Shown here: one piece after another, positions 1-34,259 of the stretch
Numbering within the stretch: position 1 is the first letter of the stretch
How the letters are laid out: the number at the start of each line of letters is the position of its first letter
Source of the DNA: a virus
Virus record (IMG/VR): IMGVR_UViG_3300045391_000686
Reading direction: 5' to 3' (one strand)
Length of the DNA: 34,259 nt
Position numbers and translations under genes: made by a program
Notes under the pieces: generated by a model
What the model was told of the DNA's origin: nothing
Seen by the model: the letters and a program-made list of their open reading frames with translations, nothing else
The model's database searches: none

Positions 1-69
1 AAACCGTTCAACTGGTGGTCGACAAATGAAGTTGGTCGCTGGTGACTACATCGAATTATACGGATGGCG
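1..69. repeat. Left copy of a 69-bp exact direct repeat shared with the window end (34191-34259). It is the assembly overlap of a circular or circularly permuted genome.
   Basis: Positions 1-69 (aaaccgttcaactggtggtcgac...ttatacggatggcg) are identical to 34191-34259. The repeat lies inside the tail-fibre ORF, and joining the ends keeps that ORF in frame. Confidence 0.95.
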
Positions 70-145
70 TAAATCAGCTGGTGCAAGCGACGCATCACAA
101 AACTTTGCCGTTTCTCTATCGGGATTCTTGGTATCTAGGACATAG
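2..145 (+). CDS. 3' end of the tail-fibre gene that starts at 33754 and continues across the circular junction (stop TAG 143-145)
   Basis: The frame carries through the repeat: ...NRSTGGRQMKLVAGDYIELYGWRKSAGASDASQNFAVSLSGFLVSRT*. On the 34,190-bp circle the product is 193 aa. Confidence 0.8.
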   Translation, partial: NRSTGGRQMKLVAGDYIELYGWRKSAGASDASQNFAVSLSGFLVSRT

Positions 146-156
146 GGGCGTTCGAC

Positions 157-444
157 ATGGATTTGAGCGCACTAGTACAAAATTTCGGCTTTCCAGTAGC
201 GGCAGCCGTTTTTTTCATCTGGATGTTTGTATCACAAGCCAAAGAACACAAGCAGGATTTGAAAGACATTGCCGTCAAATCAGTGCAAGCAATTGACGCT
301 GGAACTGAAGCCATCAAAGACAGCACCGAACAAATAAAAGTGAACAATACCCGATTGGATGAAAATTCGCACAGTCTTGGTGAAGTAAACGTGCTATTGT
401 CGCAACAAAGGAATCGAAACAATGGCATGGGAAACGGTAACTAG
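157..444 (+). CDS. BhlA/UviB-family holin-like membrane protein (95 aa)
   Basis: N-terminal TM segment followed by a charged coiled region. NFGFPVAAAVFFIWMFVSQAKEHKQDL resembles the BhlA pattern (QGPFAVLFCWLLFYVMKTSKERESKL as recalled from memory). It is the first gene of the lysis cassette. Confidence 0.55.
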   Translation: MDLSALVQNFGFPVAAAVFFIWMFVSQAKEHKQDLKDIAVKSVQAIDAGTEAIKDSTEQIKVNNTRLDENSHSLGEVNVLLSQQRNRNNGMGNGN

Positions 445-610
445 TATGTTGGCAGCGGCAACCATAATCGGTATCATATTGATAAGCGGTGGCGCTAGAA
501 TTTGGGTTCGAAAGCGATTTGATGTTTCTGAACACTTTGAAAAGATAGACGAAGCCGTGAAACGTCAACAACTAGCGAAAAGGAAATTGCACAGTGTTCA
601 ATCTAAATAA
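422..610 (+). CDS. Small single-pass membrane protein (62 aa), lysis-cassette accessory
   Basis: RBS aaaggaatcgaaaca before the ATG. TM helix SMLAAATIIGIILISGG followed by a basic tail. Overlaps both neighbours (23 and 17 nt). Confidence 0.5.
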   Translation: MAWETVTSMLAAATIIGIILISGGARIWVRKRFDVSEHFEKIDEAVKRQQLAKRKLHSVQSK

Positions 611-1397
611 AATCAAAAGAATCAAAGTCAACCATCGACAAGCTTTCGATGCAATAACTATTGCCGCCATCATTTTCGGTCTGTTGGCGCTGGTTGCGCT
701 TATCTACTACCAAGCACGACCAATGAAGCTTGCTGACATTAAAGTGCCAGTGGCAACCGACAAAGCTTCATACTACGCTGGACAGGAAATCGGCGGCATC
801 TTTTTTGGTGAAACATTCTATGACGGCAACGTGAAGATTCTTCGTGAAGTATTTTGCACCAACTACAAAGGAATTATTGACCCACCAAAAAACGGTGCTG
901 ATGGCAAATTCTTTGACACTATCACAAAACCACGCAAGCTTGAGGGCAACACCATTCCGATTGGATTTCTACCAACCGACGTGCCGACTGGTTCGAACTG
1001 TGTCATTCAATTCACAAATGTGTACAACATCCAGACACCATTCGGCGTGCGCAATGAACAATATCAATACTACACGCAAAACTTTTCAATAATCAGCAAG
1101 GAACGCCGCCAGCAACTTGACTGTGAAGCAAGCGGCAAGTCAACAAAAGAATGCACCGATGCCGATGAAACGACTGTCGACGGCAATGCAATCAACAGCA
1201 CCGACAACACATTTGGCGGCGCTTCTTCATCTGTGGGTGGTGGTGACGATAATCAAACAAATAATGAAACAACCACAAACAGCACGCCAAACAATGCCGT
1301 GCCACCATCCAGCAATGACCAGACGCCAGCCGAACCAGTTCAGCCGCCACAGCAATGCGGCGTCAATCTTCTTGGAATCAAACTATTTTGCCGATAG
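594..1397 (+). CDS. Type II membrane-anchored protein with a Ser/Thr/Asn/Pro-rich C-terminal tail (267 aa)
   Basis: GTG start 10 nt after aaaagg. Signal-anchor ITIAAIIFGLLALVALIYY, a globular middle, then low-complexity NSTDNTFGGASSSVGGGDDNQTNNETTTNSTPNNAVPPSSNDQTPAEPVQPPQQ. Confidence 0.7.
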   Translation: MFNLNKIKRIKVNHRQAFDAITIAAIIFGLLALVALIYYQARPMKLADIKVPVATDKASYYAGQEIGGIFFGETFYDGNVKILREVFCTNYKGIIDPPKNGADGKFFDTITKPRKLEGNTIPIGFLPTDVPTGSNCVIQFTNVYNIQTPFGVRNEQYQYYTQNFSIISKERRQQLDCEASGKSTKECTDADETTVDGNAINSTDNTFGGASSSVGGGDDNQTNNETTTNSTPNNAVPPSSNDQTPAEPVQPPQQCGVNLLGIKLFCR

Positions 1398-1440
1398 TGG
1401 TATCATAAGCATATGAACTAATGAAAGGAAAAATGACGAT

Positions 1441-2865
1441 ATGAGCTATCAACTACTACCGTTCAGACAATCACCAAACTACACGCCAGCTGGTCAAACA
1501 GCGGCTTTTTATGGTCGACCACGAATCATCACTGATGGTGCTGGTCACTGGTGGGATGCACCCGAAAGATTTCCGTCATTCGCTGGTGTAGTTGCCACGT
1601 TGATGAATCCAGCACGACAGGCATCAGCACAAGATGTCGTCGGTGACGGCGTTGTGCAGCCGCTAGTGCGCAAAGAAGACACTTCATGGGCAACAGGTGG
1701 TGCGAATCCATTCACATATTCAATTGAATGTGACCCACAAATCATCTACCGATGGCGTGCAGGCGGCGACAAAGCGAAAGCAAACCGCATCTTCGAAACA
1801 TTATGTGAACGCATCGCTGACGTGAACATGCACAACACACCATGGTCACCACATTGGCGCTGGATGACCACAGGATGCAACCCGATTGATTGGGCTGACG
1901 TCAACCGTCGTGCCAAGGAAATTTGGGCGCAGAAATACGGTTCACCAGTCACGCCACCACCAGCGCAAAGCGCCAACATCGTTTGGGAAAAGCTACCGAC
2001 ACCAGTTGCATACGTCACCAACAAGCAGCCGACAAAGCTTTGGAACTTCAATCAAACTGGTTGGGCTGGATTCGGCAACGGCGTTCGTGACTTCAACAAG
2101 GGTGAACAAATTGTCATCTATGGTCGTGCAATCAACAAGACGCTGAATGCGGTCTATCTGGTCACGCAGTACAGCTTCGAAAAGAAAATCACCAATGGCT
2201 TCAATGCCAACGATTTGACAGTCTACGTCGCACCAGCACCAGTGCCAGTGATACCAGAATGGCAACGCAACTTGAAAGACATCACGCCAGTGAAGCTGAT
2301 GGTTCTGACGGCACAGACGCCAGTTGTGAACTTGAACGATGGCACAGCCATCAAGCAACTTGGTCAAGGTACATGGATTGACTTCACCAAATCAACCGTC
2401 GTCGGCGGCATCGAATATCTGATTTCAAGCTATTCAGCAACCAACGCAATGGCAAACGGCGTGCGTCGTGCCGATGTCGGCGTGCCAGCTGAACCACCAG
2501 TCAATGAGAAACCAGAATGGCTGAAGAATTGGCAGGACATCACAGACGTGCCAATGTACGCAAGGGCAGACACCGACTTGGTGAATCTTGAAGACGGTTC
2601 GACCATCAAGGTGATTCCACGAGGTACGAAGCTTGATATTTCCAGCACGACAGAATGGCACGGTCACAAATATGCCATCACCGTATACAGCACCGACAAG
2701 AAGTTTGGTCAAGGTATTCGGCTTGATGACTTGGACATGAAACCAGTTGACGCCGATGGTGGCGATGTTGAACCAGCACCAACGCAGCCAACCATCGAAG
2801 AAAATGTGAACTGGTTGATGAAAGCCGTCAAAGCAATATTGGCTTTCTTAAAAATTAACGTATAG
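1441..2865 (+). CDS. Endolysin: N-acetylmuramoyl-L-alanine amidase (amidase_2/PGRP type) plus three SH3b-like wall-binding repeats
   Basis: 474 aa. The N-terminal ~170 aa are amidase_2-like (SPNYTP..., GHWWD, SAQDVV, TYSIECDPQ). A Pro-rich linker follows, then three ~80-aa repeats (KLWNFNQTG.., PVVNLNDGT.., DLVNLEDGS..) and a C-terminal amphipathic helix NWLMKAVKAILAFLKINV. Confidence 0.9.
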   Translation: MSYQLLPFRQSPNYTPAGQTAAFYGRPRIITDGAGHWWDAPERFPSFAGVVATLMNPARQASAQDVVGDGVVQPLVRKEDTSWATGGANPFTYSIECDPQIIYRWRAGGDKAKANRIFETLCERIADVNMHNTPWSPHWRWMTTGCNPIDWADVNRRAKEIWAQKYGSPVTPPPAQSANIVWEKLPTPVAYVTNKQPTKLWNFNQTGWAGFGNGVRDFNKGEQIVIYGRAINKTLNAVYLVTQYSFEKKITNGFNANDLTVYVAPAPVPVIPEWQRNLKDITPVKLMVLTAQTPVVNLNDGTAIKQLGQGTWIDFTKSTVVGGIEYLISSYSATNAMANGVRRADVGVPAEPPVNEKPEWLKNWQDITDVPMYARADTDLVNLEDGSTIKVIPRGTKLDISSTTEWHGHKYAITVYSTDKKFGQGIRLDDLDMKPVDADGGDVEPAPTQPTIEENVNWLMKAVKAILAFLKINV

Positions 2866-2880
2866 AAAGGAAACATTGAA

Positions 2881-3183
2881 ATGAATGTTGTCGAGTTTTT
2901 ACAAACAATAGTGGTATCGGGTGCGGCAGTAGTCGCAATCGTGCAGTTTCTCAAATCGAACTTCGTGCCAGCCACGGTGTTCAACAAATACCCACGTCTG
3001 ACGACGTTTGTGGCGTCTGTATTGGCGACACTGGTTGCAGTATGGCAAAAGTGCCAAGACGTCGTTGCAGGCTGTCAAACGCTTCTTCAGCAGCCACTTG
3101 ACTACGCAGCGGCAGTCGTCGGAATCTTCTTGATTGCCGTCGTGCTGTACAACAACGTATTGCGTGACAAGCCACAAAGCTGA
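2881..3183 (+). CDS. Putative holin (100 aa, about three TM segments)
   Basis: Lies immediately downstream of the endolysin with a good RBS (gaaaggaaacattgaaATG). Hydrophobic segments are IVVSGAAVVAIVQFL, TFVASVLATLVAVW and AAAVVGIFLIAVVLY, with a charged C-terminus. Confidence 0.65.
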   Translation: MNVVEFLQTIVVSGAAVVAIVQFLKSNFVPATVFNKYPRLTTFVASVLATLVAVWQKCQDVVAGCQTLLQQPLDYAAAVVGIFLIAVVLYNNVLRDKPQS

Positions 3184-3293
3184 TACACTTGAAAAGTTCA
3201 GTGGTTCACTACCCATAGACCGTGACGTTTCGCACCTGTTTCGTCGGTAGTAGCAGAATGAACATGACAGTGTGGGATTGAGTTTCAAACAAG

Positions 3294-3318
3294 AAAGCCG
3301 CCGAAAGGTGGTTTTTTT
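3294..3318 (+). terminator. Rho-independent terminator at the end of the late/lysis transcription unit
   Basis: aaagccgcc gaaa ggtggttt: a stem with two G-U pairs and a GAAA loop, followed by a T7 run (3312-3318). Confidence 0.6.
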
Positions 3319-3338
3319 GTACCTATGTTATATTCACG

Positions 3339-3383
3339 AAAGTATAGAAAAGTATTGACAAAATGGCAAGAATGCGCTATACT
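3339..3383 (+). promoter_or_regulatory. Early promoter P1: tandem decamers AAAGTATAGA/AAAGTATTGA, -35 TTGACA (3355-3360), 17-nt spacer, -10 TATACT (3378-3383)
   Basis: Consensus sigma-70/sigma-A hexamers at the ideal spacing. It is one of four near-identical cassettes. Confidence 0.7.
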
Positions 3384-3521
3384 GTATACAGAATCGAAAA
3401 CAAAACAAAAACGATTCAAACACCTCTGGTTGTGATATACGCCGCACTGAACTTTCAAAAGCATCAGTCAATAAGTCGAACAAGCAACATTTTGACAGGG
3501 GTGTTTTTTCTTTGGTCAAGA

Positions 3522-3566
3522 AAAGTACAGAAAAGTATTGACAATTGTGGCACGGTCATATACAAT
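3522..3566 (+). promoter_or_regulatory. Early promoter P2: AAAGTACAGA/AAAGTATTGA, -35 TTGACA (3538-3543), 17-nt spacer, -10 TACAAT (3561-3566)
   Basis: Same cassette as P1, P3 and P4. The -10 lies 36 nt upstream of the first early ATG (3602). Confidence 0.8.
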
Positions 3567-3601
3567 TGAAATATCAACAAAGGAAAGGCACATTTGACGA
3601 T

Positions 3602-3802
3602 ATGCAAACCAACGAAGTACGAACCACCGAAGAAACAAAAGACTATGATTGCTTTACAGGCGGCATCATCACCAAGCATTGGGTCACATACCACTACCCA
3701 CGACCAGTGACTTTGGTTCACTACACAGCCACCAAGCACAACGGCGAAACTTCAAAGAAATATACCCGAATCGGCAACGCAACCAACTGGTTGGGCAAAT
3801 AA
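3602..3802 (+). CDS. Early hypothetical protein (66 aa)
   Basis: First cistron after P2. RBS aaaggaaagg, start context TTGACGATATG. Confidence 0.65.
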   Translation: MQTNEVRTTEETKDYDCFTGGIITKHWVTYHYPRPVTLVHYTATKHNGETSKKYTRIGNATNWLGK

Positions 3803-3804
3803 TC

Positions 3805-4125
3805 ATGGCAGCCGAACCATACACGAAGTCAATCAGCTGTCCTGAACACCCACAGGACAGCCACACAGCCGTTCTGTACACATTTGGGCATCAGCACGCA
3901 GGCATTTGGGAATGTCTAGTCACAGGCGCTTCAGACAGCTGTGAACACGAATCCACGCATGTCGAAGAAGCCGTGCAAGACCATTTGGGCGTGCAAGGTC
4001 ACTACCAGACCGAACATTCAATCTACGTTTGCGACCATTGTGAATGCCAAACCGACGGCGACCCCGAAGCTGATGCAGCTGAAGACCGTGCCGACGCTGA
4101 AGCTGACAATTGGCGTGATGAATAA
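3805..4125 (+). CDS. Early Cys/His-rich protein with a strongly acidic tail (106 aa)
   Basis: CPEHPQDSH, CEHESTH and CDHCEC clusters, and a C-terminus DGDPEADAAEDRADAEADNWRDE. The start is 2 nt after the upstream stop. Confidence 0.6.
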   Translation: MAAEPYTKSISCPEHPQDSHTAVLYTFGHQHAGIWECLVTGASDSCEHESTHVEEAVQDHLGVQGHYQTEHSIYVCDHCECQTDGDPEADAAEDRADAEADNWRDE

Positions 4126-4150
4126 CAAATCAAGAAAGGGGTGAAAACCT

Positions 4151-4510
4151 ATGTCAAAAGAAATGCAAACCACTGAAGTCATCAAAGATGTCTTGCCAGT
4201 GCAGCTGACAGGCGACGAACGAATGCAATGTGCCGACGCACTTGCGAATGCGTTGCAGCGTGTCGAATCAGCCAAAGAGAAAAAGCGCCGCATCGTCAAA
4301 GACTTGGACAGGGAAATTGCCGAAGTGCAGCAAGAAGCATTGGAATTGCGCAACGCTGTCGCATCGGGCAAAGAATACCGTGAAGTGATTGTGCATCGTG
4401 TGTTCGATTATGCAAAAGCAACTGTGACCGAAAGCCGAACCGATACTGGTGACGTTCTATTCACAAGGGCAATGACAGACGAAGAAAGGCAATCAAAACT
4501 GATTGACTGA
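4151..4510 (+). CDS. Early hypothetical coiled-coil protein (119 aa)
   Basis: RBS gaaaggggtgaaaacctATG. No alternative frame is open. Confidence 0.7.
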   Translation: MSKEMQTTEVIKDVLPVQLTGDERMQCADALANALQRVESAKEKKRRIVKDLDREIAEVQQEALELRNAVASGKEYREVIVHRVFDYAKATVTESRTDTGDVLFTRAMTDEERQSKLID

Positions 4511-4512
4511 TT

Positions 4513-4860
4513 ATGAATACAAATGAAAATCAATCCACACTGTTCGATAGTTACAAGCTGACAAAGGTCGAGGGCATCAGCAAGATGCCAACCGACGCAG
4601 CGTTTCACGCATTCCACCGTGCCAACCCATGGGTCGTGAAAGAGTTGGAAAAGATAGCATGGGAAATGCTTCGCAGCGGTAGAAAGAAAATCGGCATTCA
4701 AGCTTGCATTGAAATCTTTCGTTGGGAAACACGCCGCCACACTATCAGCCACGACTTCAAAATCAACAACAATTTTGCGTCACGATACGCACGTTTGATT
4801 CATGACCGCAACCCACATTGGGGTCAAGTGTTCGAACTTCGAAACATCAAGAAAGGATGA
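4513..4860 (+). CDS. Early hypothetical protein (115 aa)
   Basis: Starts 2 nt after the upstream stop. Sequence FHAFHRANPWVVKELEKIAWEML...NNNFASRYARLI looks like a conserved phage family of unknown function. Confidence 0.65.
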   Translation: MNTNENQSTLFDSYKLTKVEGISKMPTDAAFHAFHRANPWVVKELEKIAWEMLRSGRKKIGIQACIEIFRWETRRHTISHDFKINNNFASRYARLIHDRNPHWGQVFELRNIKKG

Positions 4861-4867
4861 ATCAATC

Positions 4868-5143
4868 ATGAATCCAAATGAACCATATGCAGAATTTGTC
4901 GACCTTGGCACAAGCCGTCTGATGGTATTTGCCAACCGATTCGAACACGACGGTTCGATTTCGTGGTCTATCGGCACAACCAGCGGCGCAAACGTCGGCG
5001 TGCAGATTGGCAGCAATAGTCAAAACGCACTTGCAGAATTGAAGCAGCTGAAAAAAGCCATCGACGGCGCTGTGAAATTCCACGATAATATAAACAAACA
5101 GAACGATGCGAAAGGAAAAAACAACGATGGGGTCAAGAAATAA
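4868..5143 (+). CDS. Early hypothetical protein (91 aa)
   Basis: RBS aagaaaggatgaatcaatcATG. The internal start was chosen over the 4802 ORF-track start. Confidence 0.6.
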   Translation: MNPNEPYAEFVDLGTSRLMVFANRFEHDGSISWSIGTTSGANVGVQIGSNSQNALAELKQLKKAIDGAVKFHDNINKQNDAKGKNNDGVKK

Positions 5144-5369
5144 CACGTTCATGCAATCAATCGGCACGTTCGTGATATTCATTGCCGCATTGGGCATGGT
5201 GGGCGCATTGGCAATCGCAATGATGATTGTCGGCATCTATTGGGCATTTGAAACATTGTTTTCAGTTGGCTGGTGGTGTTCGTTGGTCATCATGTTGGCG
5301 GTTGCCGCATTGTATCTGGTCGCATTATTTGGCGGCATAAAGCTTTTGAGAAAGGGCAACAACATATGA
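5127..5369 (+). CDS. Early small membrane protein (80 aa, 2-3 TM)
   Basis: RBS gaaaggaaaaaacaacgATG. Hydrophobic FVIFIAALGMVGALAIAMMIVGIYW and WWCSLVIMLAVAALYLVALFGGI. Confidence 0.65.
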   Translation: MGSRNNTFMQSIGTFVIFIAALGMVGALAIAMMIVGIYWAFETLFSVGWWCSLVIMLAVAALYLVALFGGIKLLRKGNNI

Positions 5370-5602
5370 ATATAGAATTTGACAAAGAGTGGTACAGACC
5401 ACGAGAAATTGCGCAAAAGCGATTCATCACGAATTCGCTGGACAGTGACAAGGAATCAGCAAACTACGATTTCATACTTGAAGAAATCAAACGTGGTGAA
5501 CTGAAAGCACGGAACTATTCAAAATCAGCATATCGACCATATTGGTTGGTGTCGGCAAAAGAAATCGAAAGGTATCTGAAAAGTCATGCCGCACAAGCCT
5601 GA
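5366..5602 (+). CDS. Small helix-turn-helix DNA-binding protein (excisionase/MerR-like HTH_17 pattern, 78 aa)
   Basis: ATGA overlap with the upstream gene. The WYRPREIAQKRFIT...WLVSAKEIERYL pattern is typical of Xis-type winged HTH proteins. Confidence 0.5.
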   Translation: MNIEFDKEWYRPREIAQKRFITNSLDSDKESANYDFILEEIKRGELKARNYSKSAYRPYWLVSAKEIERYLKSHAAQA

Positions 5603-5831
5603 ACCATACGAAGTCGGTCAAACGGTTGTCATTCCAGTGGCAGCCGACTTCAACTGGTCACAGCAATTGCAGATTCAAGTCGTGATGTTTGCCGAACAGA
5701 AAGCCATCATCGAAGATTTTCATGCGCAAGGTTTGAACCCTGTTCTGTCACCAGCGTTTGAAGACGGCAAGTTGATTGGTTTCGGCATCATACCAGCTGA
5801 ACGTGCTGTGCCGCCAAAGGCGCAATCATGA
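5586..5831 (+). CDS. Early hypothetical protein (81 aa)
   Basis: RBS cgaaaggtatctgaaaagtcATG. Overlaps the upstream gene by 17 nt. Confidence 0.6.
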   Translation: MPHKPEPYEVGQTVVIPVAADFNWSQQLQIQVVMFAEQKAIIEDFHAQGLNPVLSPAFEDGKLIGFGIIPAERAVPPKAQS

Positions 5832-5986
5832 TTCGCTATACACGCCGCATCAAGAACAAGCACGGCAACCACACCACCATCAAAATATTCACCAACAGCC
5901 GCATCAAGTTTGCTTTTGCATACTGTCGTGGCTGGTACGAATTCAGCCGTGGCAATTCGTTTGAGTATAATGATATTTGGTACTAA
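5828..5986 (+). CDS. Early small basic protein (52 aa), below the ORF-track cutoff
   Basis: ATGA overlap with the 5586-5831 gene. Translation MIRYTRRIKNKHGNHTTIKIFTNSRIKFAFAYCRGWYEFSRGNSFEYNDIWY*. It fills an otherwise empty gap. Confidence 0.5.
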   Translation: MIRYTRRIKNKHGNHTTIKIFTNSRIKFAFAYCRGWYEFSRGNSFEYNDIWY

Positions 5987-6008
5987 ATAATTGAAAGGGG
6001 TGTCAACC

Positions 6009-6227
6009 ATGGCAACTGAAGAAACAAAATCAATCAAAGATTTCGAACTTGAAAAAGGTGTCATCATTCATGGTGATATAAACGTGCAAAAGAAAGTCAC
6101 GGAATCTGAATTTGAACAGATGATTCATGACGGCAGCACAGGTGTGAATTTCGAAGACCGAACGGCATATCTGAAAAGCAAGGGAATCAAAGTCACACGA
6201 CAAAGTTTGATTGATACCAGTCTATAA
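6009..6227 (+). CDS. Early hypothetical acidic protein (72 aa)
   Basis: RBS gaaaggggtgtcaaccATG. Confidence 0.6.
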   Translation: MATEETKSIKDFELEKGVIIHGDINVQKKVTESEFEQMIHDGSTGVNFEDRTAYLKSKGIKVTRQSLIDTSL

Positions 6228-6234
6228 TGACAAT

Positions 6235-6441
6235 ATGGTTGAAAGCTTTGGGCGGTATGAAACAGCGTGCAAGGGCAAGCGAAAGTTTGCCACTGAATCA
6301 GACGCAGTTCGTGCCGCCAAAGAGTTGCGAAAGCGTGTTGGTGCAAGGGTCAAACCGTACCAGTGCCAACATTGCCAGCAATGGCACAACGGTCATTTTC
6401 GCAGAATAATCAAAGCGCTTCGACCTCTGACAGTTGAATGA
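6235..6441 (+). CDS. Early small protein with a CxxC...H zinc-ribbon-like C-terminus (68 aa)
   Basis: YQCQHCQQWHNGH motif. The start is uncertain: ATG 6235 or TTG 6211. Confidence 0.5.
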   Translation: MVESFGRYETACKGKRKFATESDAVRAAKELRKRVGARVKPYQCQHCQQWHNGHFRRIIKALRPLTVE

Positions 6442-6485
6442 AAGTATAGAAAAGTATTGACAATCATGACAATCTTTGCTACACT
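6441..6485 (+). promoter_or_regulatory. Promoter P3: AAAGTATAGA/AAAGTATTGA, -35 TTGACA (6457-6462), 17-nt spacer, TGn-extended -10 tgcTACACT (6480-6485)
   Basis: Third copy of the cassette. The leader carries GAAAGG and ATGACGATATG. Confidence 0.8.
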
Positions 6486-6522
6486 GAAAAGGTCAACAAA
6501 TAAAGAAAGGTCAAATGACGAT

Positions 6523-6756
6523 ATGACAAAAAAATCAACAACACCAACAACCGATGCAGCCGCATCAAACAAAAAGACAATGCCAGCCACACTGAAGACA
6601 GTTGTGACACTGGTTGAGGTAGTAGCACGCTTCTTGGCAGCATACCTTTTATTGAACAACTTCGACCACATCGTGGCAGTTGCAGCAGGATGGTATTTCC
6701 TGATAACCGCAGCCATGGCGTTCGTCGCACTAGTTCACAAAGCATCTAAAAACTAG
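6523..6756 (+). CDS. Small membrane protein (77 aa)
   Basis: First cistron after P3. Two hydrophobic helices VVTLVEVVARFLAAYLLL and VAVAAGWYFLITAAMAFVALV. Confidence 0.65.
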   Translation: MTKKSTTPTTDAAASNKKTMPATLKTVVTLVEVVARFLAAYLLLNNFDHIVAVAAGWYFLITAAMAFVALVHKASKN

Positions 6757-6757
6757 C

Positions 6758-6788
6758 GAAGCAGCCGTCACCACGACGGCTTTGCTTC
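6758..6788 (+). other. GC-rich hairpin without a U-tract between the membrane-protein gene and the annealase gene
   Basis: Arms gaagca+gccgtc and gacggc+(tt bulge)+tgcttc around an accac loop. No T-run follows, so it is more likely a processing or stability element or a weak attenuator than a full terminator. Confidence 0.4.
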
Positions 6789-6810
6789 ATATACCGAAAG
6801 GGGTATTTTT

Positions 6811-7494
6811 ATGGCGAAGACTGACGCCGCAACTGAAGCAAAAAAGCGCAAGACAGAATTGAAGTCACAGTTCGGTGAATTCATTCCAGAGGGCAACGAC
6901 CCTGAACAGCTATACAAGCAATGGGTTTCAGCACTGTTCGGAAAAGAAGAAACACCAGACGACGACATGCTATTTCGTGCGCTGACAATGGCAAAGCTTG
7001 CAGGAATCGACATTCGTGGCGGTTTGCTGTACATCAAAGACGGCAACGTCATCATCAACATCGACGGTCTTGTGGCTATTGCTGACAAAACTGGTCAATA
7101 TGGTGGCACGTCAAAAGTTGAATATCAATACGACGAAAACCAGAAAGCCAAATCGGTCATCGTTGGCATCTACAAAATCATTGGTGAACACGTTCTGACA
7201 CCAGAACAGATTGTCATGATGGATGAATACGACACTGGTGATGGCTTATGGGCTGACGCAAAGGACGGCGGCAAGAAGCTGTCAATGCTGAAGAAAGTCG
7301 GTTTGGCGCACGTCATTCGTGCATCATTCACCACTTGTGCTGGTCTGTACATACCTGAAGAAGTTTCGGGCGTTGCCAAAAAGAAAGTCGCAAAGACGCA
7401 ATCTGAAATGGAAACGAACATCACCAAGGCACTTGCGAAGAATCGCAAAAAGGGTCAATCTAATATTGAACCAACCAAAGCAAAGAAAGCATAG
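6811..7494 (+). CDS. Single-strand annealing protein, RecT/Red-beta superfamily (227 aa)
   Basis: The pattern ...AGIDIRGGLLYI..INIDGLVAIADKTG...MMDEY...W...KLSMLKKVGLAHVIRASF...LYIPEE matches RecT/Bet hallmarks (DG, MLxKxA..R.aF, EE). Confidence 0.8.
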   Translation: MAKTDAATEAKKRKTELKSQFGEFIPEGNDPEQLYKQWVSALFGKEETPDDDMLFRALTMAKLAGIDIRGGLLYIKDGNVIINIDGLVAIADKTGQYGGTSKVEYQYDENQKAKSVIVGIYKIIGEHVLTPEQIVMMDEYDTGDGLWADAKDGGKKLSMLKKVGLAHVIRASFTTCAGLYIPEEVSGVAKKKVAKTQSEMETNITKALAKNRKKGQSNIEPTKAKKA

Positions 7495-7499
7495 ACGAT

Positions 7500-8120
7500 A
7501 TGCAATACAACGTGAAGAACGACGGAAAGCTTCACACCCGATTCAGCGACCTGATGCGTGCAACACCACATCAAGTGGAAAACATCATCAAAGAACAGTT
7601 GGGTGAAAAAGAACGCTTCAAATCAGATGTCATGGACTTCGGCAGCATCCGTCATGACATGTGGGAAAAGGAATCGAAAGAAACAGGCATGTTGCCAGTG
7701 GTTTTTCGTGACGCATTTCCGCAATACAAAGATTTGCAAATCACACATGCTGAAAAAGAATTCGCAACCGAACTGTTCAAGAACATCGTGATTCACAGCC
7801 GACCAGACGGCGTGTCTGTACCATCAGCCATTGTGGTTGACTACAAGACCATGGTCAAAGGTGCAGGCGGCGCACGACGGTATGCCAGTTCGAAGCAATT
7901 GCCATTCTATTCATTCCAACTTGGCATTCACAACATACGCATCAAAAAATATGTGTATCTGGTTGAAATTTGGAACAAAGAATATACGGAAATTATCGGG
8001 TACGACTGTTTTGAAAAGACCGTCGGCTTGATTGATATTGCCGCCGCAAAGAAGTGGGCGCATGACCGCTGTGAAGTGCTTGCAATGGGCATGAAAATGG
8101 CAGGGTTGTGGAAAGGTTGA
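7500..8120 (+). CDS. PD-(D/E)xK exonuclease (RecB/Cas4/YqaJ-like), partner of the annealase (206 aa)
   Basis: GSIRHDMWE, then RPDGV....IVVDYKT (D...D-x-K motif), then QLPFY. It is adjacent to the RecT-like gene. Confidence 0.7.
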   Translation: MQYNVKNDGKLHTRFSDLMRATPHQVENIIKEQLGEKERFKSDVMDFGSIRHDMWEKESKETGMLPVVFRDAFPQYKDLQITHAEKEFATELFKNIVIHSRPDGVSVPSAIVVDYKTMVKGAGGARRYASSKQLPFYSFQLGIHNIRIKKYVYLVEIWNKEYTEIIGYDCFEKTVGLIDIAAAKKWAHDRCEVLAMGMKMAGLWKG

Positions 8121-8126
8121 CCGCTT

Positions 8127-8171
8127 AAAGTATAGAAAAGTATTGACAATTGAAACATGCTTTGCTACAAT
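8127..8171 (+). promoter_or_regulatory. Promoter P4: AAAGTATAGA/AAAGTATTGA, -35 TTGACA (8143-8148), 17-nt spacer, TGn-extended -10 tgcTACAAT (8166-8171)
   Basis: Fourth copy of the cassette. Its leader gaaatatcatcaaagaaagg is almost identical to the P2 leader. Confidence 0.8.
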
Positions 8172-8204
8172 AGAAATATCATCAAAGAAAGGATGAAAAA
8201 CGAT

Positions 8205-25899: not shown

Positions 25900-25900
25900 C

Positions 25901-26305: not shown

Positions 26306-26322
26306 AAAGGTATCATGACGAT

Positions 26323-26712: not shown

Positions 26713-26999
26713 GGCTTATCAAGATGGTCGCAATATTCTTGCGATTCTATAACGGCTACACACTGACGCAGTTGATGAAAGAACCAGCACACTGGTTCTT
26801 TTCTCTGTTGAATCAAGCTTTCAAATTGGACGCTGAAGAACATTTGAAACTGTTGGGCGTGGCAGCATACCCACACATGAAACAGCAGCAGGCAAACGAA
26901 TTGCGTCGTGCTTATGTTGACAACAGTCGTGATATACTTGAAATATTGAAAGACTTCAATGATAACAGTGGTATCGGGCAACTGAAGAAAGAAATGTAG
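26323..26999 (+). CDS. Tail assembly chaperone G-T fusion product made by a -1 frameshift at 26696-26704
   Basis: After the slip the reading is ...DQKK/KNGVRLIKMVAIFLRFYNGY... to stop 26997-26999. This is the conserved G/GT arrangement of long-tailed phages. Confidence 0.65.
26696..26704 (+). promoter_or_regulatory. Slippery A9 run (gac caa aaa aaa acg) for programmed -1 ribosomal frameshifting
   Basis: An A AAA AAA heptamer lies in the zero frame 2 codons before the stop. The -1 frame is open from here to 26999. Confidence 0.7.
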
Positions 27000-27007
27000 A
27001 CACTAAA

Positions 27008-29356
27008 ATGGCAGAAAAAATCGGCACAATCTACTACGACCTAGACTTGGATGATTCGAAGTATAAATCGAAATCCAAAGCGGCTGGTAGTGATGCCGAC
27101 ACGTTTGGTTCAAAGTTGCAGGGTGCGACGGTGCAAATGGCGGCACTTGGTGCGGCAGCTGGTCTTGCATTGAATCAAGTGGTGAATTGGCTTGAAAAGT
27201 CTGTCGATGCCGCCGTGAAGCAGCAAAACGCATTGATGGGTCTGTCATCAGTGGCAAGAGGTACAGGAAACGACATCGACAAAACCACGCAAGCGGCAAA
27301 GGATTTGTCGCAAGATGGTTTGATGCCATTGGGTGATGCAGCGTCGGGATTGAAAAACCTGTTGGCGGCTGGTTTCAGTCTACCCGAAGCAATCAAGTTG
27401 ATGGAACGATTCAAAGATTCGGCGGCATTTGGTCGTCAAGGGTCATTGGAATTCGGTCAAGCGATTGTCGGTGCGACAGAGGGTATCAAGAACGGAAACA
27501 GCGCACTGGTCGACAACGCTGGTGTGACCAAAAACTTGTCGAACATGCTTGTCGATGCTGGATTCAGCGCACAAGACTTGGCAAAGGCAAGTGACGACGT
27601 GAACGTGCGCATGGCGCTATACAACGGCATTATCAAGGAAACGGCAAACCAGCAGGGTGACGCCGCCAAGCTTGCTGATTCGTTCGGTGGTGCATTGGCA
27701 CGACAAAAGACGGCAGCCACAAATCTACAAGTCGCAATCGGTACAGCGCTTCAACCAGTGCTTACGAAAATCATGGAAGCTGTCGCACCGTTGCTTGAAA
27801 AGTTTGTCACATGGGCAAAGGAAAACCCGAAGCTGGTTGCGGCAATCGCAGCAGTCGTCGTCGTTCTGTTGGGCTTATTGGCTGTTTTCGGCATCGTTGG
27901 GGCGGCAGTAGCAGCATTCATGGCAATTGGTACGGTTGGCGTCGTTGCGGCGGCTGTGGCGGCTGGTATAGCGCTTCTTGTGGGCATCTTCATATACTTT
28001 GGTGACACAATCAAAGCTGTCGCAAAAACTATTGGTGAATTCGTCGGTAGAATCGTTCAATGGTTCAAAGACCATTTCGAAACAATCAAGAAAGTCGTTC
28101 TGACTGTTTTGGCAGTAGCATTCGCACCATTGATTGCAACCGTTCTGTTGATTGTCGGCGTCTTCAAGCTGTTGGTCTGGATTGTGCAGACAGTGGCAAC
28201 CATATTCATGGCAGTCTTCAACGCAATATGGGCAGTCGTACAATTTGTCTTCAATGGCATCATGATGTTGTGGAACACGATTCTTGCGCCAGTGTTCAAC
28301 GCAATCATGTTCATACTTGGTGCGCTTTTCCAAATCTGGTGGACTATCTTCACAGGCATCTTGCAAGTGGTATGGACTATCGTTTCGACCATAGCGCAAA
28401 TCATCTTCGTTGTACTGATGGGGGTCTTCAACTGGATTCTGAACACGTTCTTGAAGCCACTGTTCAATTTCTACGTCGCTATATTCACGGCAATCTGGAA
28501 CGTCATTTCGACAGTATTCAACGCCATCTGGAACGTCATCAGCATGGTCGCTGGTGCAATCTGGAATGTCATCGTTTCAGTGTTCAACGCCGTGCTGAAC
28601 TTCGTGCGTGGCGTATTCAACTGGATTAAAGACGCAATCATTTCACCGATAGTGGCAGCATACAACCGAATTGCGCAAATTGTCGGCGGCATCAAAGATG
28701 CAGTTGTCGGCGGTATTCGCAGCGCCATCGACGGCATCAAGAATTTTGTCGGTGACGCAATCAACGCTGGAAAGAACCTGATTGATGGAATTGTCAAAGG
28801 TGTATCGGGTGCGAAAGATGCAGTCGTGAACAAGGTCAAAGAAATTGCAAGTGGCGCACTGGATGCGGTGAAGAAGTTTTTCGGAATCAAATCACCATCA
28901 AGGGTCATGGCGCAAATGGGTGACTTCATGATGCAGGGTATGCAGAACGGCATCGAACGTGCTGGTTCAGCCGTCGTGAAAGCCGCCACAACGATTTCGG
29001 GCAAAATAAGTGATGGAATGCAAGACAGCTTGTCGAACGTGTCACAGGGCGCAAGAAACGTCGTTGGCGTCTATCGTGGCATGTATGGGCAACTGAACGC
29101 AATGAACATGGCATCAGCTGGTGCGCTTGCTGGTAGCATGACCGCAATCGGCAATGCAGCGAATGAAAATCCAAACGGTGCAATCGCACAGCCACCAGTC
29201 AACGTGACGCTTGAACAAAGCGGAATCGTGGCACGTTCACGAAGCGAATTCCGTGACATCATCGCTGACGGCATTGAAGCTGTCAACGAAGATTTGCGTG
29301 CAAGGGGTTACAACGAAATTGGTGACGGTAAAGTGAAAGGACAGAGTACATCATAA
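27008..29356 (+). CDS. Tape measure protein (782 aa)
   Basis: Largest ORF, downstream of G/GT. Helical N-terminus, a ~300-aa hydrophobic core with periodic aromatic FNxIW repeats, and a C-terminal globular part. Confidence 0.9.
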   Translation: MAEKIGTIYYDLDLDDSKYKSKSKAAGSDADTFGSKLQGATVQMAALGAAAGLALNQVVNWLEKSVDAAVKQQNALMGLSSVARGTGNDIDKTTQAAKDLSQDGLMPLGDAASGLKNLLAAGFSLPEAIKLMERFKDSAAFGRQGSLEFGQAIVGATEGIKNGNSALVDNAGVTKNLSNMLVDAGFSAQDLAKASDDVNVRMALYNGIIKETANQQGDAAKLADSFGGALARQKTAATNLQVAIGTALQPVLTKIMEAVAPLLEKFVTWAKENPKLVAAIAAVVVVLLGLLAVFGIVGAAVAAFMAIGTVGVVAAAVAAGIALLVGIFIYFGDTIKAVAKTIGEFVGRIVQWFKDHFETIKKVVLTVLAVAFAPLIATVLLIVGVFKLLVWIVQTVATIFMAVFNAIWAVVQFVFNGIMMLWNTILAPVFNAIMFILGALFQIWWTIFTGILQVVWTIVSTIAQIIFVVLMGVFNWILNTFLKPLFNFYVAIFTAIWNVISTVFNAIWNVISMVAGAIWNVIVSVFNAVLNFVRGVFNWIKDAIISPIVAAYNRIAQIVGGIKDAVVGGIRSAIDGIKNFVGDAINAGKNLIDGIVKGVSGAKDAVVNKVKEIASGALDAVKKFFGIKSPSRVMAQMGDFMMQGMQNGIERAGSAVVKAATTISGKISDGMQDSLSNVSQGARNVVGVYRGMYGQLNAMNMASAGALAGSMTAIGNAANENPNGAIAQPPVNVTLEQSGIVARSRSEFRDIIADGIEAVNEDLRARGYNEIGDGKVKGQSTS
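28490..28588 (+). repeat. Three tandem 33-bp (11-aa) repeats inside the tape measure gene
   Basis: gcaatctggaacgtcat.. (28490), gccatctggaacgtcat.. (28523) and gcaatctggaatgtcat.. (28556) encode AIWNVISTVFN, AIWNVISMVAG and AIWNVIVSVFN. Confidence 0.85.
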
Positions 29357-29736: not shown

Positions 29737-31278
29737 ATGCAGGCAACGACCACAGCATTCACGAACAGGGCAAACGGCGCAATGCGAAAGCTGACGCACC
29801 GTGCTTTGATGTCGTTTCCACGCAACTACAATCCAGCCGTGACATTCTTCACGATTGGTGTTTCTACTATTGGCGGCGCTGACATCATCAAAGGTGTTGG
29901 CGATGTTGTTGCTGAATGGGACAAATATCAATACGACGATTATTCATACCGCATCAAAAGCATCGAAGTCACACGTCAAGAAGAAAACTTCAATTCAACC
30001 ACACTTGCACAAGCCGATGTTGTCATGGAAAATCACGACAACTATTTCACGCCGAACCGTGGTTCAGTCATAGACGAATTCATTTTGCCATACCGACCAA
30101 TAAAATTGGCAGGCGGCTTCGGTGAAGAAGCAATTCCACAGTTCGTTGGCTTGACCGAAAAGATGCCATCTGTTGAAGAAAAGTCAAAGACGATTTCATT
30201 GCACGCCATCGACTTCATGTATTCGTTATTCAACCGACCACTTGATGCAGCTGTCATGTACCAAGATATGCGCACCGACCAAATACTTGCGGCGCTATTG
30301 GTAGAGTTTGGCATTTCACCGACACAATACAATTTTGATGTCGGGTACAATATCATTGCATTTGCATTCTTCGACAAGGGTTCAAAGTTCGGTGATGTGG
30401 TCAAGAAATTGATGCAAGCCGAAATGGGGCGCTTCTTTATGGACGAAGAAGGTGTCATCAGATTCAAAAACCGACAAAACTATTTGTCATCACCAGTATG
30501 GTTTTTCAACGAAACCAACATCATTGATATACAGACAAGCAAGCAAGACGACATCATCAACGTAGTCGAAATCAAAGCCAATGTGCGTGAAGTGCAGGCA
30601 AATCAAAAGTTTTGGGAATTGCAATCAGCTGTCGTTGTGCCGCCGAATTCATCACTGACATTGTGGGCTGACTTCGAAGACCCTGTGACAACTGTTGATG
30701 ACCCCGAATACATCACACTTGCCGATACGTCGCTATACACTACCAACACAGCTGAAGACGGTTCGGGTGATGCGGTATCAGTCAACTTCGCATTGGACAG
30801 CACGACGCAGTTTTCAAAGTCGTTTCAGATGGTTTTCGAAAACACCAATGCTTTTGCGGTCTATATCACGACGCTTGAGCTATTTGCACGACCAGCAAAA
30901 ATTGTCAAAGAATTGTACATTCGTGAAGAAGACAGCATCAGCGTCGGCAAATACGACGAACGTGTGTTGACTATCGAAAACGAATTCTTCAACAGTGACG
31001 CTGAAGCAACTTCAAAAGCAAAAATCATTCTGGATGATGAATCGAACTACGCCAATACATACATCATGAACGTCAAAGGCAATCCAGCATTGCAGGTCGG
31101 TGACCCTGTGAACGTATCGGTCTTCGGTAGTGCCGATGTATTTGTCATCAAGAAAATAGTCAACCGATGGGAAGCTGGAAAGTTTTCGCAAATGCTGACG
31201 GTCAAAAAGAAGTCATTCAGAACATTCTTCACCGTTGGAATATCAACAATCGGTGGTGTGGATGTGATAGCGCCATGA
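29737..31278 (+). CDS. Tail tip / baseplate hub-like minor tail protein (513 aa)
   Basis: Second gene after the tape measure and the largest tail-tip ORF. It carries a duplicated FFT(I/V)G(V/I)STIGG(A/V)D(I/V)I motif near both termini. Confidence 0.5.
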   Translation: MQATTTAFTNRANGAMRKLTHRALMSFPRNYNPAVTFFTIGVSTIGGADIIKGVGDVVAEWDKYQYDDYSYRIKSIEVTRQEENFNSTTLAQADVVMENHDNYFTPNRGSVIDEFILPYRPIKLAGGFGEEAIPQFVGLTEKMPSVEEKSKTISLHAIDFMYSLFNRPLDAAVMYQDMRTDQILAALLVEFGISPTQYNFDVGYNIIAFAFFDKGSKFGDVVKKLMQAEMGRFFMDEEGVIRFKNRQNYLSSPVWFFNETNIIDIQTSKQDDIINVVEIKANVREVQANQKFWELQSAVVVPPNSSLTLWADFEDPVTTVDDPEYITLADTSLYTTNTAEDGSGDAVSVNFALDSTTQFSKSFQMVFENTNAFAVYITTLELFARPAKIVKELYIREEDSISVGKYDERVLTIENEFFNSDAEATSKAKIILDDESNYANTYIMNVKGNPALQVGDPVNVSVFGSADVFVIKKIVNRWEAGKFSQMLTVKKKSFRTFFTVGISTIGGVDVIAP

Positions 31279-32850: not shown

Positions 32851-33155
32851 ACATTCCACATCCAAGCCGCAAGAATCTGAAGCGGCGATTCAGCGGCAAC
32901 CCTTTGAAGAAAGCGCTGATGAATGATGATGTCGAAATAAAACCGATGACAGTCATTCCAAAAGTATGCGCCACGACACAATGCGTGTGGTGCGCAGTCG
33001 AGTTCGAAAGCGAAGCCATCAGATGCCGTGTGTGCGGCAATTGCCAGTATTGTGGCATGTTTTGCACGTCAAAGAACGAATGCAGCAATTGCGGAAACAT
33101 GTTGCCGCCAGAATTGCGTGTGGATGAACAGCGTCGTGTTGTAAGATTTGAATGA
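32808..33155 (+). CDS. Cys-rich metal-cluster-like protein in the tail-fibre region (115 aa)
   Basis: Ten Cys within 44 residues: CATTQCVWC...CRVCGNCQYCGMFC...CSNC. Overlaps the upstream gene by 43 nt. Confidence 0.5.
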   Translation: METRRTIHYAGNTVDIPHPSRKNLKRRFSGNPLKKALMNDDVEIKPMTVIPKVCATTQCVWCAVEFESEAIRCRVCGNCQYCGMFCTSKNECSNCGNMLPPELRVDEQRRVVRFE

Positions 33156-33160
33156 AATAG

Positions 33161-33169
33161 TGCTATAAT
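33161..33169 (+). promoter_or_regulatory. Possible extended -10 promoter (TGcTATAAT)
   Basis: tgcTATAAT lies in the 40-nt gap before 33196. There is no good -35. Confidence 0.3.
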
Positions 33170-33195
33170 CGAAACCATAAGGGAAACTAAAAAAT

Positions 33196-33750
33196 ATGCA
33201 AGTAAACGACCAACTAGTCAATCAAATGCTTCGGAATCTACCGCAAGACCAGCAGAATCAATTTGCTTCAGTTTTGCGCAATGAAGTCGCATATGAGGTC
33301 GTTTGCAACACCACAGATGTCACCGAAGAACGTGACGTGCCGACACTTGATGAAAGTGGTGAAAAGCAATATTTCAAGACTGGTGAAAAAGCTGGTCAAG
33401 TAAAAACCCACAAAGAAAACGTCGTCGTGCAGCGTGGCACAAATGGGCGTGTCATTGCGCACATTATGAAAGACGGTCAAGTTGTGCCGCTGAAAGATGA
33501 AAACGGTGACATGTGGCTTCGTTCTTCACGCCGCCGTACTGATGGCGAATACGGTTTTGAATGCTGGTGTGGTCTTGATTCACGCATTGCACCGAATGAA
33601 GCAGGCATTTTGAAAGCCGACGGAACGCAGCCGACGAAAGAAGATTTGTACCACATGGCTGAAAACTTGCAGAATTCACCACCGAAATACGCTACAATAA
33701 ACCATGAACGTGATGTTGATGGTTTCATACTTCGAAAGGTAGGAAAATAG
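33196..33750 (+). CDS. Hypothetical protein adjacent to the tail fibre (184 aa)
   Basis: RBS taagggaaactaaaaaatATG. It is the only long ORF in this interval. Confidence 0.6.
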   Translation: MQVNDQLVNQMLRNLPQDQQNQFASVLRNEVAYEVVCNTTDVTEERDVPTLDESGEKQYFKTGEKAGQVKTHKENVVVQRGTNGRVIAHIMKDGQVVPLKDENGDMWLRSSRRRTDGEYGFECWCGLDSRIAPNEAGILKADGTQPTKEDLYHMAENLQNSPPKYATINHERDVDGFILRKVGK

Positions 33751-33753
33751 AAA

Positions 33754-34259
33754 ATGGCATACACAGCATGGTCGGTTGTATACGGTGAACAGCCAACAGC
33801 CGCAAAATGGAATCAACTAGGCACAAACGATGCTGGATTCAAAGACGGCACAAACATCGACGACGATGCTATTCTTGCACGGCACATTGCTGACGGCGTA
33901 GTTGATGACGCACGATGGCGGAACAATGTCACATTCCGTGGCTATACTAGCACCAACCAAGCTGGTATCGGTGCAGGCGTATTCACAAAAATGACACAAG
34001 ATTTGGAAGAATGGGATACTGGAAACAATTTCAATCCGACACTTTCACGCTTCGTCGCACCATATAACGGTATCTATTATTTTGAGGGTGCGTTTTCCGT
34101 ACCAAACAATGATGTTCGTATTTTTGCCAGCTTATACAAGAACGGTGTTGAAGCATATCGTGCGACAAATGGCGCATACACTGGAAGTGCAAACCGTTCA
34201 ACTGGTGGTCGACAAATGAAGTTGGTCGCTGGTGACTACATCGAATTATACGGATGGCG
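33754..34259 (+). CDS. Tail fibre / receptor-binding protein with a C1q/TNF-like C-terminal domain; runs off the window end and finishes at 145 after circularisation
   Basis: The N-terminus MAYTAWSVVYGEQPTAAKWNQLGTNDAGFKDGTNIDDDAI is a common phage fibre N-terminus. The C-terminal FVAPYNGIYYFEGAF...LYKNG...GDYIELY resembles C1q-like jelly rolls. There is no stop before 34259. Confidence 0.7.
   Translation, partial: MAYTAWSVVYGEQPTAAKWNQLGTNDAGFKDGTNIDDDAILARHIADGVVDDARWRNNVTFRGYTSTNQAGIGAGVFTKMTQDLEEWDTGNNFNPTLSRFVAPYNGIYYFEGAFSVPNNDVRIFASLYKNGVEAYRATNGAYTGSANRSTGGRQMKLVAGDYIELYGW
34191..34259. repeat. Right copy of the 69-bp terminal direct repeat (identical to 1-69)
   Basis: Exact identity with 1-69. 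Confidence 0.95.

Follow-up and report, generated by a model that had tools for sequence, protein, structure and literature searches.

The DNA considered here (the window) is the entire 34,259-nt stretch of the IMG/VR virus record IMGVR_UViG_3300045391_000686, and the subject of this work is a large set of short words, among them the recognition-type palindromes GATC, CCGG, GGCC and CGCG, that have been eliminated from it. The G+C (GC) content is 46.8% and uniform along the sequence. An exact 69-bp direct repeat, positions 1..69 (+) being identical to 34191..34259 (+), represents the overlap of a circular assembly, and the genome is therefore complete, with a size of about 34,190 bp (~34.19 kb). 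The window is the whole genome of an uncultivated wastewater or freshwater tailed phage with an HK97-type head module. All credible genes are located on the plus strand, including the following:

1441..2865, plus strand, endolysin with an N-terminal amidase domain
10685-11314, plus strand, 209-aa protein with an SLT lytic-transglycosylase domain, in the early/middle region and apart from the amidase endolysin
11928-12869, plus strand, glycosyltransferase
12866-13561, plus strand, FkbM-type methyltransferase
13518-14138, plus strand, Fic protein
14135-15187, plus strand, second glycosyltransferase
15188..17230, plus strand, variable slot flanked by the second glycosyltransferase and the small terminase
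17231-17806, plus strand, helix-turn-helix/small-terminase-like protein
17751-19286, plus strand, TerL
19334-21370, plus strand, portal
21671-22534, plus strand, prohead protease
22541-23809, plus strand, HK97-type major capsid protein
27008-29356, plus strand, 782-aa open reading frame (ORF) in the tail region without a family match, with an orthologue at the same position in relatives
29737-31278, plus strand, tail protein

A megablast search with 25 kb of the window against 50,697 GenBank phages returned no match, and the portal protein has less than 30% identity to any cultured phage.

An exact search of the window found no copy of GATC, CCGG, GGCC, CCWGG, GGWCC, CCNGG, GGNCC or CTGCAG and a single copy of CGCG, at 23234..23237. 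The first-pass annotation of this DNA, made by reading the sequence, had reported these absences as genome-wide, and the circular assembly makes that term literal. The maximal-order Markov expectation is 123 copies for GATC, 112 for CGCG, 95 for GGCC, 67 for CCGG, 26 for CCWGG, and 12 for GGWCC. A synonymous-codon shuffle (200 replicates), which preserves every protein and the global codon usage, gave 98 copies of GATC (with a minimum of 75), 95 of CGCG, 80 of GGCC, 55 of CCGG, and 32 of CCWGG. The four missing 4-mers are thus seen 0–1 times where 67–123 copies (Markov) or 55–98 copies (shuffle) are expected from composition-aware models. Comparable palindromes are common, as had also been claimed: GCGC occurs 154 times (for example, at 167, 687, and 1927), TCGA 207, TGCA 195, CATG 187, ACGT 138, AGCT 113, GTAC 92, and GAATTC 27 times. 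The depletion is word-specific rather than a property of all palindromes or of GC-rich words, as illustrated by 154 copies of GCGC versus one of CGCG, and 207 of TCGA versus none of GATC. The same words are excluded whatever the reading frame, and the 3.6 kb of non-coding DNA is no exception. The lone CGCG is formed by the codons CGC-GCA (Arg-Ala) of the capsid gene through a synonymous CGT to CGC change private to the window, and all four closest relatives have CGTG at this position. The absence of CTGCAG, also noted earlier, stands as a count but has no meaning as a PstI-like signal, because the plus strand lacks any CTGC (0 versus ~74 expected).

Although the words listed in the first-pass annotation are gone, the extent of the loss had been much understated. 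TTAA is seen 7 times versus 107 expected; on the plus strand, GGAG (0 versus 45 expected) and CTCC (0 versus 17 expected) are both missing. CCTTC was found once versus ~62–63 copies expected on both strands, and CTGGG once versus ~50. GAGTC (0 of 32 expected), CAGAAG (0 of 38), and GCAGTG (0 of 20) are absent, and the elimination of GTCTC, ACGGG, CCCGC, GGATA, ATTAC, and CGGAC is likewise complete or almost complete. The residual sites are as follows:

739, 2848, 2855, 8125, 19117, 23960, 28626 (span 739..28629), starts of the residual TTAA copies
30448..30452, plus strand, sole GAAGG/CCTTC site
22942..22946, plus strand, sole CCCAG/CTGGG site, kept in three of the four closest relatives

Among the 64 six-base palindromes, 44 do not occur, although 207 copies of them would be expected in total. 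For 20 of the 44, with ~94 copies expected in total, no eliminated 4-mer lies inside the word; they include AACGTT, ATCGAT, GATATC, GCATGC, CGTACG, GGCGCC, CACGTG, GGTACC, GTGCAC, and ATGCAT. The 20 retained hexamer palindromes are seen 331 times versus 256 expected, and the distribution is bimodal.

For calibration, a word was considered eliminated if its expectation was at least 15, its observed count did not exceed the larger of 1 and 5% of the expectation, and no shorter eliminated word was contained in it; one pipeline was used throughout. The eliminated set of the window comprises 5 palindromes, 14 words missing in both orientations, 10 missing in a single orientation, and 13 ambiguous ones, and one or both orientations are lost for 98 of the 504 canonical 5-mers that could be tested. 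For the window and its close relatives, about 29–42 words count as eliminated, compared to 4–6 for T7, 3 for phage K (first 50 kb), 4–5 for SPP1, and 0–1 for L030, an unrelated phage from the same habitat. Two unrelated low-GC (31–33%) phages, L026 and L027 (IMG/VR 3300020049_008792 and 3300020046_004297), which share only the glycosyltransferase with the window, are devoid of GATC, CCGG, GGCC, CGCG, GCGC, CATG, ACGT, and CCWGG (e.g., 16 kb contain no GATC, CATG, or ACGT); in the window's habitat, avoidance of many sites to such an extreme may be common.

About ten words are absent from the window in one orientation only, namely CTGC, GCCC, GCCT, TCCC, GTCAG, CTGGC, TCAGG, CCCAA, GTTCC, and CTCAT. 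On the plus strand, CTGC is seen 0 times versus 74 expected, while its reverse complement GCAG is seen 216 times versus 238 expected. The corresponding observed and expected numbers are 0/40 for GCCC and 91/95 for GGGC, 0/32 for GTCAG and 61/34 for CTGAC, 0/31 for CTGGC and 39/32 for GCCAG, 0/29 for TCAGG and 20/18 for CCTGA, 0/25 for CCCAA and 46/35 for TTGGG, and 0/17 for GTTCC and 32/45 for GGAAC. GCTC is also missing (0/49), and its reverse complement GAGC is itself depleted (14/57). The copies of several asymmetric words therefore all point one way, with the retained orientation at normal frequency, as in T7 with respect to EcoP15I. The zero for CTGC applies to frame 0 (28 expected), frame 1 (31), and frame 2 (15) alike, and non-coding DNA has no copy either (9.7 expected), while GCAG is seen there 16 times versus 14.6 expected.

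The avoidance has left a clear footprint in the coding sequence. After a G-ending codon isoleucine is encoded by ATT (83) or ATA (24) and never by ATC, which accounts for 311 of 578 cases elsewhere; before a C-initial codon aspartate is encoded by GAC in all 77 cases (e.g., the in-frame GAC CTG at 7548) and never by GAT, compared to 217 of 582 elsewhere. Both codon footprints had been claimed in the first-pass annotation, along with a constraint on protein sequence, which the dipeptide counts bear out: the Pro-Gly (PG) and Gly-Pro (GP) dipeptides are both at 0 in the proteome, against an expectation of 22.4 apiece; no other dipeptide expected more than 5 times is missing. The searchable literature yielded no account of site avoidance depriving a proteome of dipeptides. 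The consequences extend to translation signals. GGAG is located upstream of no gene, while GAAAG or AAAGG precedes about one-third of the genes; because GGAG is forbidden, the ribosome-binding sites have the form GAAAGG or AAAGGG, for example:

16646..16665, plus strand, GGAG-free ribosome-binding site GAAGAAAGGAATCACAAACT

Such a motif would be able to pair with the CCUUUC tail in which the 16S rRNA of many lineages outside the Proteobacteria ends at its 3' side.

A search with the capsid protein revealed 247 matches, with 52–98% identity among the 120 listed, including many contigs of 33–37 kb from JGI, ENA, NCBI, and Logan data, and a metagenome scan added few extra loci. One of the projects contributing relatives, PRJEB14051, is from a Swedish wastewater treatment plant. 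A comparison matrix was built for 17 contigs of the family, whose gene order is syntenic, each with its own codon-shuffle null. The lineages on the side of the window (capsid identity 71–98%) are without GATC, CCGG, GGCC, CGCG, TTAA, and CCTTC, while two sister clades (capsid identity 60–70%) carry 68–196 copies each of GATC, CCGG, GGCC, and CGCG. The lineages have their own sets of missing words. CATG is at 0 only in the L036/L050 lineage; ACGT is at 0 in L014, and one copy is present in the more distant ERZ795_43; neither strand of L016 or L055 contains GGTGA, CACGG, or GCAGC, and the same is true of CACGG and GCAGC in L014; GTCAC/GTGAC is at 0 in both sister clades; CAATTG is seen 0–1 times in L014, L016, and L055; and AACGTT, at 0 in the window, has 18 copies in c10941_28. 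In the 37% GC branch of the family (L015, L043, and L057), almost no Shine–Dalgarno-like motifs occur upstream of genes (0 of 17 in ERZ795_43), GCGC, CGCG, and GGCC are lacking, and one member was binned in a Saccharibacteria metagenome-assembled genome (MAG).

The same comparison clarifies the status of CCNGG and GGNCC, which the first-pass annotation regarded as avoided classes. Their class avoidance is unprovable from the window alone because CCSGG contains CCGG. In L036, L050, L013, and L046, CCGG is present in 72–164 copies with 0–1 copies of both CCSGG and CCWGG, and GGCC in 60–126 copies with 0–1 copies of both GGSCC and GGWCC. It follows that the avoidance of CCNGG and GGNCC concerns true 5-bp classes, and GP is lacking throughout the family; accordingly, the amino acids that replaced PG and GP in the window could not be read from the sister clades, since both dipeptides are missing there too. 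At orthologous positions of GATC, CCGG, GGCC, and CGCG in sister lineages, the amino acids are unchanged in the window in about 25–50% of cases, depending on the word and lineage, and changed in the rest. Among the words tolerated in L036, L050, and L013, GATC, CCGG, and CGCG are at about twice the uniform expectation, and GCCGGC is strongly over-represented, accounting for 52 of 164 CCGG sites in 21 kb of L036, compared to ~5 expected from length.

Changes are also visible over short evolutionary distances. Across the five closest genomes (74–89% nucleotide identity), nine single-orientation words, including GTCAG, TCAGG, CTGGC, and GGTCT/AGACC, toggle between eliminated and fully present. 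CAGAAG, CTGGC, and GTCAG switch between genomes that are 78–89% identical, and AACGTT, like CAGAAG, is among the switching words. Sites common to the relatives are found in the window as single-nucleotide variants: GTCAG has become GTCAA, CTGGC has become CTGGT, CTTGC, or TTGGC, and CAGAAG has become CTGAAG or CCGAAG. In L007 (75%), GATC, CCGG, and GGCC are still missing, while CGCG (31 copies), GGAG (28), and CTGC (43) are present, so that the asymmetric and several palindromic avoidances have been lost together. A recently inserted three-gene cassette was considered as the sole location of these words and ruled out, since they are spread along the whole locus. Three inserted genes do separate the portal gene of L007 from its protease gene (4734-7793); they encode a 112-aa protein with a BppU_N baseplate domain and proteins of 506 and 399 aa without a family match. 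In a lineage that has lost most of the avoidances, this insertion may mark a host switch.

Biased composition of the window could in principle mimic some of these effects. The TA dinucleotide is at 0.40 of its expectation; TAA/TTA occurs 189 times versus 630–1293 expected on both strands, a loss wider than that of TTAA; and GAG/CTC is depleted about 8-fold, with 610 GAA versus 62 GAG codons for glutamate and only 9 CTC codons for leucine. These biases are relaxed in the sister clades, where TTAA, GTAA, and TAAA occur, and in the window they may conceal more degenerate avoided motifs. One could hypothesise that the words went missing through a neutral bias of composition or mutation, or because the phage passively mimics the oligonucleotide signature of its host, taking into account the low TA content, the 5–8-fold depletion of TAA/TTA and GAG/CTC, the purine-loaded coding strand, and the under-representation of such palindromes in bacterial genomes rich in restriction–modification (R-M) systems (PMC6286503). 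Such an origin is very improbable, since the zeros persist under both the maximal-order Markov and the synonymous-codon-shuffle nulls, hexamer palindromes are distributed bimodally, and compositionally similar palindromes such as GCGC and TCGA are at or above expectation. Moreover, relatives of equal GC content and codon usage hold ~70–200 copies of the forbidden words, and words switch on and off between the genomes of 78–89% identity mentioned above.

The possibility that assembly, library preparation, filtering, or engineering and recoding of the sequence produced the pattern is negligible. Nothing specific favours a technical artefact other than the metagenomic derivation of the window and the assembler overlap at its ends. 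The same missing set is observed in relatives with 85–98% capsid identity from JGI, NCBI (GCA_054403495.1), and Logan SRR runs, which are independent projects with independent assemblers, while other lineages show different word sets in comparable data. Common cloning sites, e.g., GAAGAC and GAATTC, are present, and the genes are ordered as in a natural siphovirus.

No DNA methyltransferase was detected in any scanned ORF of the window, including the variable slot 15188..17230. In three tolerant lineages, this slot is occupied by a DNA methyltransferase gene. L016 encodes a C5 methyltransferase with the catalytic domains of M.HhaI and M.HaeIII as the nearest relatives, L055 encodes a Dam-like protein, and L050 encodes a 566-aa protein homologous to the Mod subunits of Type III systems (EcoP15I Mod, E = 7e-57; Mbo45V, E = 5e-50) without a Res-sized neighbour. 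The L050 cassette lies on the minus strand at 875-2859, has 41% GC, and holds six of the seven CTGC words of the contig; it looks recently acquired and as yet unpurged. The target of this Mod might be one of the asymmetric words of the family. Each type of methyltransferase is private to its own lineage, and none was found on the window-side contigs. As judged by homology, the methyltransferases of the tolerant lineages support the action of R-M systems, including Type III, on this phage family. They were also considered as a full account of the tolerant clades, but, being sporadic and of one type per lineage, they can serve only as a partial one. Together with the lineage-specific barcodes of missing words, their sporadic presence only in tolerant lineages suggests that avoidance at least partly tracks the selective context.

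The module at 11928-15187, consisting of the two glycosyltransferases, the FkbM-type methyltransferase, and Fic, is kept in avoiding and tolerant lineages alike and shows no correlation with the avoidance pattern. It seems not to be of the DNA methyltransferase kind, and its substrate could be a host surface glycan or the virion. The second glycosyltransferase recurs at 31–37% identity in the otherwise unrelated phages L026–L032 (GC 31–44%). The SLT-domain protein at 10685-11314 could serve for cell-wall penetration or as a second lysin.

Altogether, the missing words are very probably explained by the avoidance of the sites of multiple restriction systems, as the first-pass annotation had proposed: the loss is word-specific and independent of frame, extends into non-coding DNA, and affects different word sets in homologous phages of independent metagenomic origin. 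From the lost words with their statistics, from their lineage-specific distribution, and from the pattern of mutations, we infer restriction enzymes as the selective agent, and likewise the enzyme class behind each word and the host. A phage without a detectable DNA methyltransferase would escape the R-M systems of its hosts by carrying no recognition sequences. Since a site-free genome is not cut, point mutations destroying the sites would be fixed, synonymous ones where possible and amino-acid-changing ones otherwise. The specificities met would be very many, probably across the host population rather than in one cell.

Three classes of words could be distinguished within this scheme. The first would correspond to the palindromes of orthodox Type II enzymes and includes GATC, CCGG, GGCC, CGCG, TTAA, CCNGG, GGNCC, and about 20 more hexamers. 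The second, asymmetric words removed from both strands, such as GGAG, CCTTC, CTGGG, GAGTC, GTCTC, CAGAAG, and others, would fit Type IIS/IIG or BREX-like systems. The third comprises asymmetric words removed from one strand only, which would disarm enzymes requiring two inversely oriented sites (Type III and Type ISP).

Several observations weigh against such an explanation. None of the avoided words could be assigned to an actual enzyme, and more than 40 implied specificities would be a very large number for one known host. Besides the sporadic occurrence of the methyltransferases, one enzyme cannot account for the tolerance of four different 4-mers, and hypothetical differences between hosts must therefore be invoked. 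In the one-orientation layer, of the 77 exclusions of this kind counted in the whole family, 69 remove the word that is pyrimidine-rich on the coding strand, and CTGC, GCTC, and GCCC are steadier across the family than would be expected of fast-changing Type III specificities. Three orientation flips between lineages were apparent, but strict thresholds left only one, CTGAC/GTCAG, which lowered our confidence in the Type III reading. Part of this layer could come from RNA-level or other strand-linked selection.

Selection at the RNA level could act on targets of sequence-specific host endoribonucleases (RNases of toxin or abortive-infection systems) or on internal Shine–Dalgarno-like GGAG motifs that stall ribosomes, and would then be responsible for the one-orientation absences and perhaps for that of GGAG as well. 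Location of all genes on the plus strand, the pyrimidine-rich sense-strand words, the unaffected reverse complements, and the stability of CTGC, GCTC, and GCCC across most of the family agree with it, and exclusions in non-coding DNA are compatible with it too, since this DNA is mostly transcribed. We nevertheless consider it unlikely. The sense strand is also devoid of CTCC (17 copies expected), which means that the avoidance of GGAG extends to both DNA strands. GTCAG is purged in the window, c63020, and L010, while it is CTGAC that is purged in L016 and L055 (0 copies, versus 20–22 of GTCAG), and both orientations are lost in L036 and L013. A member of the family carries the orphan Type III Mod methylase, and the joint loss of asymmetric and palindromic avoidances in L007 suggests one host-dependent cause at the DNA level. 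The minus-strand genes of the relatives look recently acquired and hence are uninformative as to whether selection acts on DNA or RNA.

A search of 185,579 species genomes with the capsid protein, aimed at the host, found nothing. An alignment query of genomes identified one distant relative (61% capsid identity, 37% GC) on a contig binned in a Saccharibacteria MAG; this contig consists entirely of phage sequence and is too weak a basis for naming the host. Searches by tblastn with the tail protein and the glycosyltransferase provided no host information. Among 50,697 phage records, the only full-length match of the endolysin was to that of TM7 phage DolZOral124_53_65 (87% coverage, 30% identity, E = 2e-38); the remaining matches cover the amidase domain only and belong chiefly to phages of Actinobacteria. 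Five of the seven words eliminated in the TM7 phage (CCTTC, CTAAG, GGWCC, GGATA, and CCCAA) are also eliminated in the window (P = 0.004), but this overlap discriminates poorly, since 19% of 5-mers are eliminated in the window and the words of SPP1 overlap as well. On the basis of these sequence comparisons, a member of Saccharibacteria, or a bacterium with a similar cell wall, could tentatively be proposed as the host. According to a preprint, R-M components are present in Candidate Phyla Radiation (CPR) genomes, and their density is not exceptional.

It is conceivable, although still doubtful, that the family records a pan-immune repertoire of more than 40 specificities of an uncultivated host, possibly from Saccharibacteria or another CPR lineage, and that a large share of them is represented by one-orientation asymmetric words. 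If so, orientation-dependent systems of the Type III or ISP-like kind would be a major and fast-changing force acting on natural phages, undetected by a survey of ~4,000 viruses of cultured hosts, and the barcodes could give R-M specificities and the partitioning of hosts straight from metagenomes. A CPR host would also fit the idea that CRISPR-poor lineages rely on R-M. Known examples of avoidance involve few words, whereas about one-fifth of 5-mers are unusable here in at least one orientation, and the window shows how far the pressure of innate immunity can limit the coding capacity of a phage. The family provides a natural series of close genomes with different barcodes, in which purge rates, trade-offs between avoidance and methyltransferases, and orientation-dependent restriction are measurable. 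The barcodes predict which enzymes will not cut these genomes and may help to assign hosts to uncultivated phages once the methylomes of the hosts are known.

Among known systems, T7 is similar to the window in being virulent, of similar size, with genes on one strand and without Type II sites, and the same pipeline recovered GATC and CCWGG as eliminated in its genome. T7 keeps GGAG-type ribosome-binding sites and PG/GP dipeptides. It also differs in having one documented one-orientation word, compared to about ten in the window, and in the use of the Ocr protein. The 36 EcoP15 sites (CAGCAG) of T7 are all in one orientation, which keeps them from being cleaved, and the phage is unrestricted, unlike T3 (PMC3874151). 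Staphylococcal phage K (Kayvirus), cited in the first-pass annotation as a GATC-free precedent, indeed has no GATC in its first 50 kb, and no GGNCC either; GP is therefore not encodable there, which makes this phage a precedent for the loss of GP in the window. However, phage K contains 30 copies of CCNGG, its 29% GC makes many expectations small, and the enzymes of its host are known (Sau3AI and Sau96I). Bacillus phage SPP1 resembles the window as a siphovirus of a Gram-positive-type host with word-specific losses (CCWGG, GCAGC, and GAAGAC eliminated), but GATC, CCGG, GGCC, and CGCG are not eliminated in it at the same thresholds. TM7 phage DolZOral124_53_65 shares the full-length endolysin homologue and has a small avoidance set, but differs in an unrelated genome architecture, unrelated structural genes, a GC content of 52%, and plentiful CCGG and GGCC.

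Rusinov et al. (2018), who surveyed some 4,000 prokaryotic viruses, found that avoidance is strongest in non-temperate double-stranded DNA phages and for orthodox Type II sites, with elimination in 7.1% of orthodox Type II site–genome pairs and in less than 0.5% for other types (PMC6286503). By contrast, asymmetric words, missing in both or in a single orientation, make up most of the eliminated set of the window. The principle of restriction-site avoidance is thus established, and what is unusual here is the number of words, the predominance of asymmetric ones, the one-orientation layer, and the visible consequences for proteins and translation signals.

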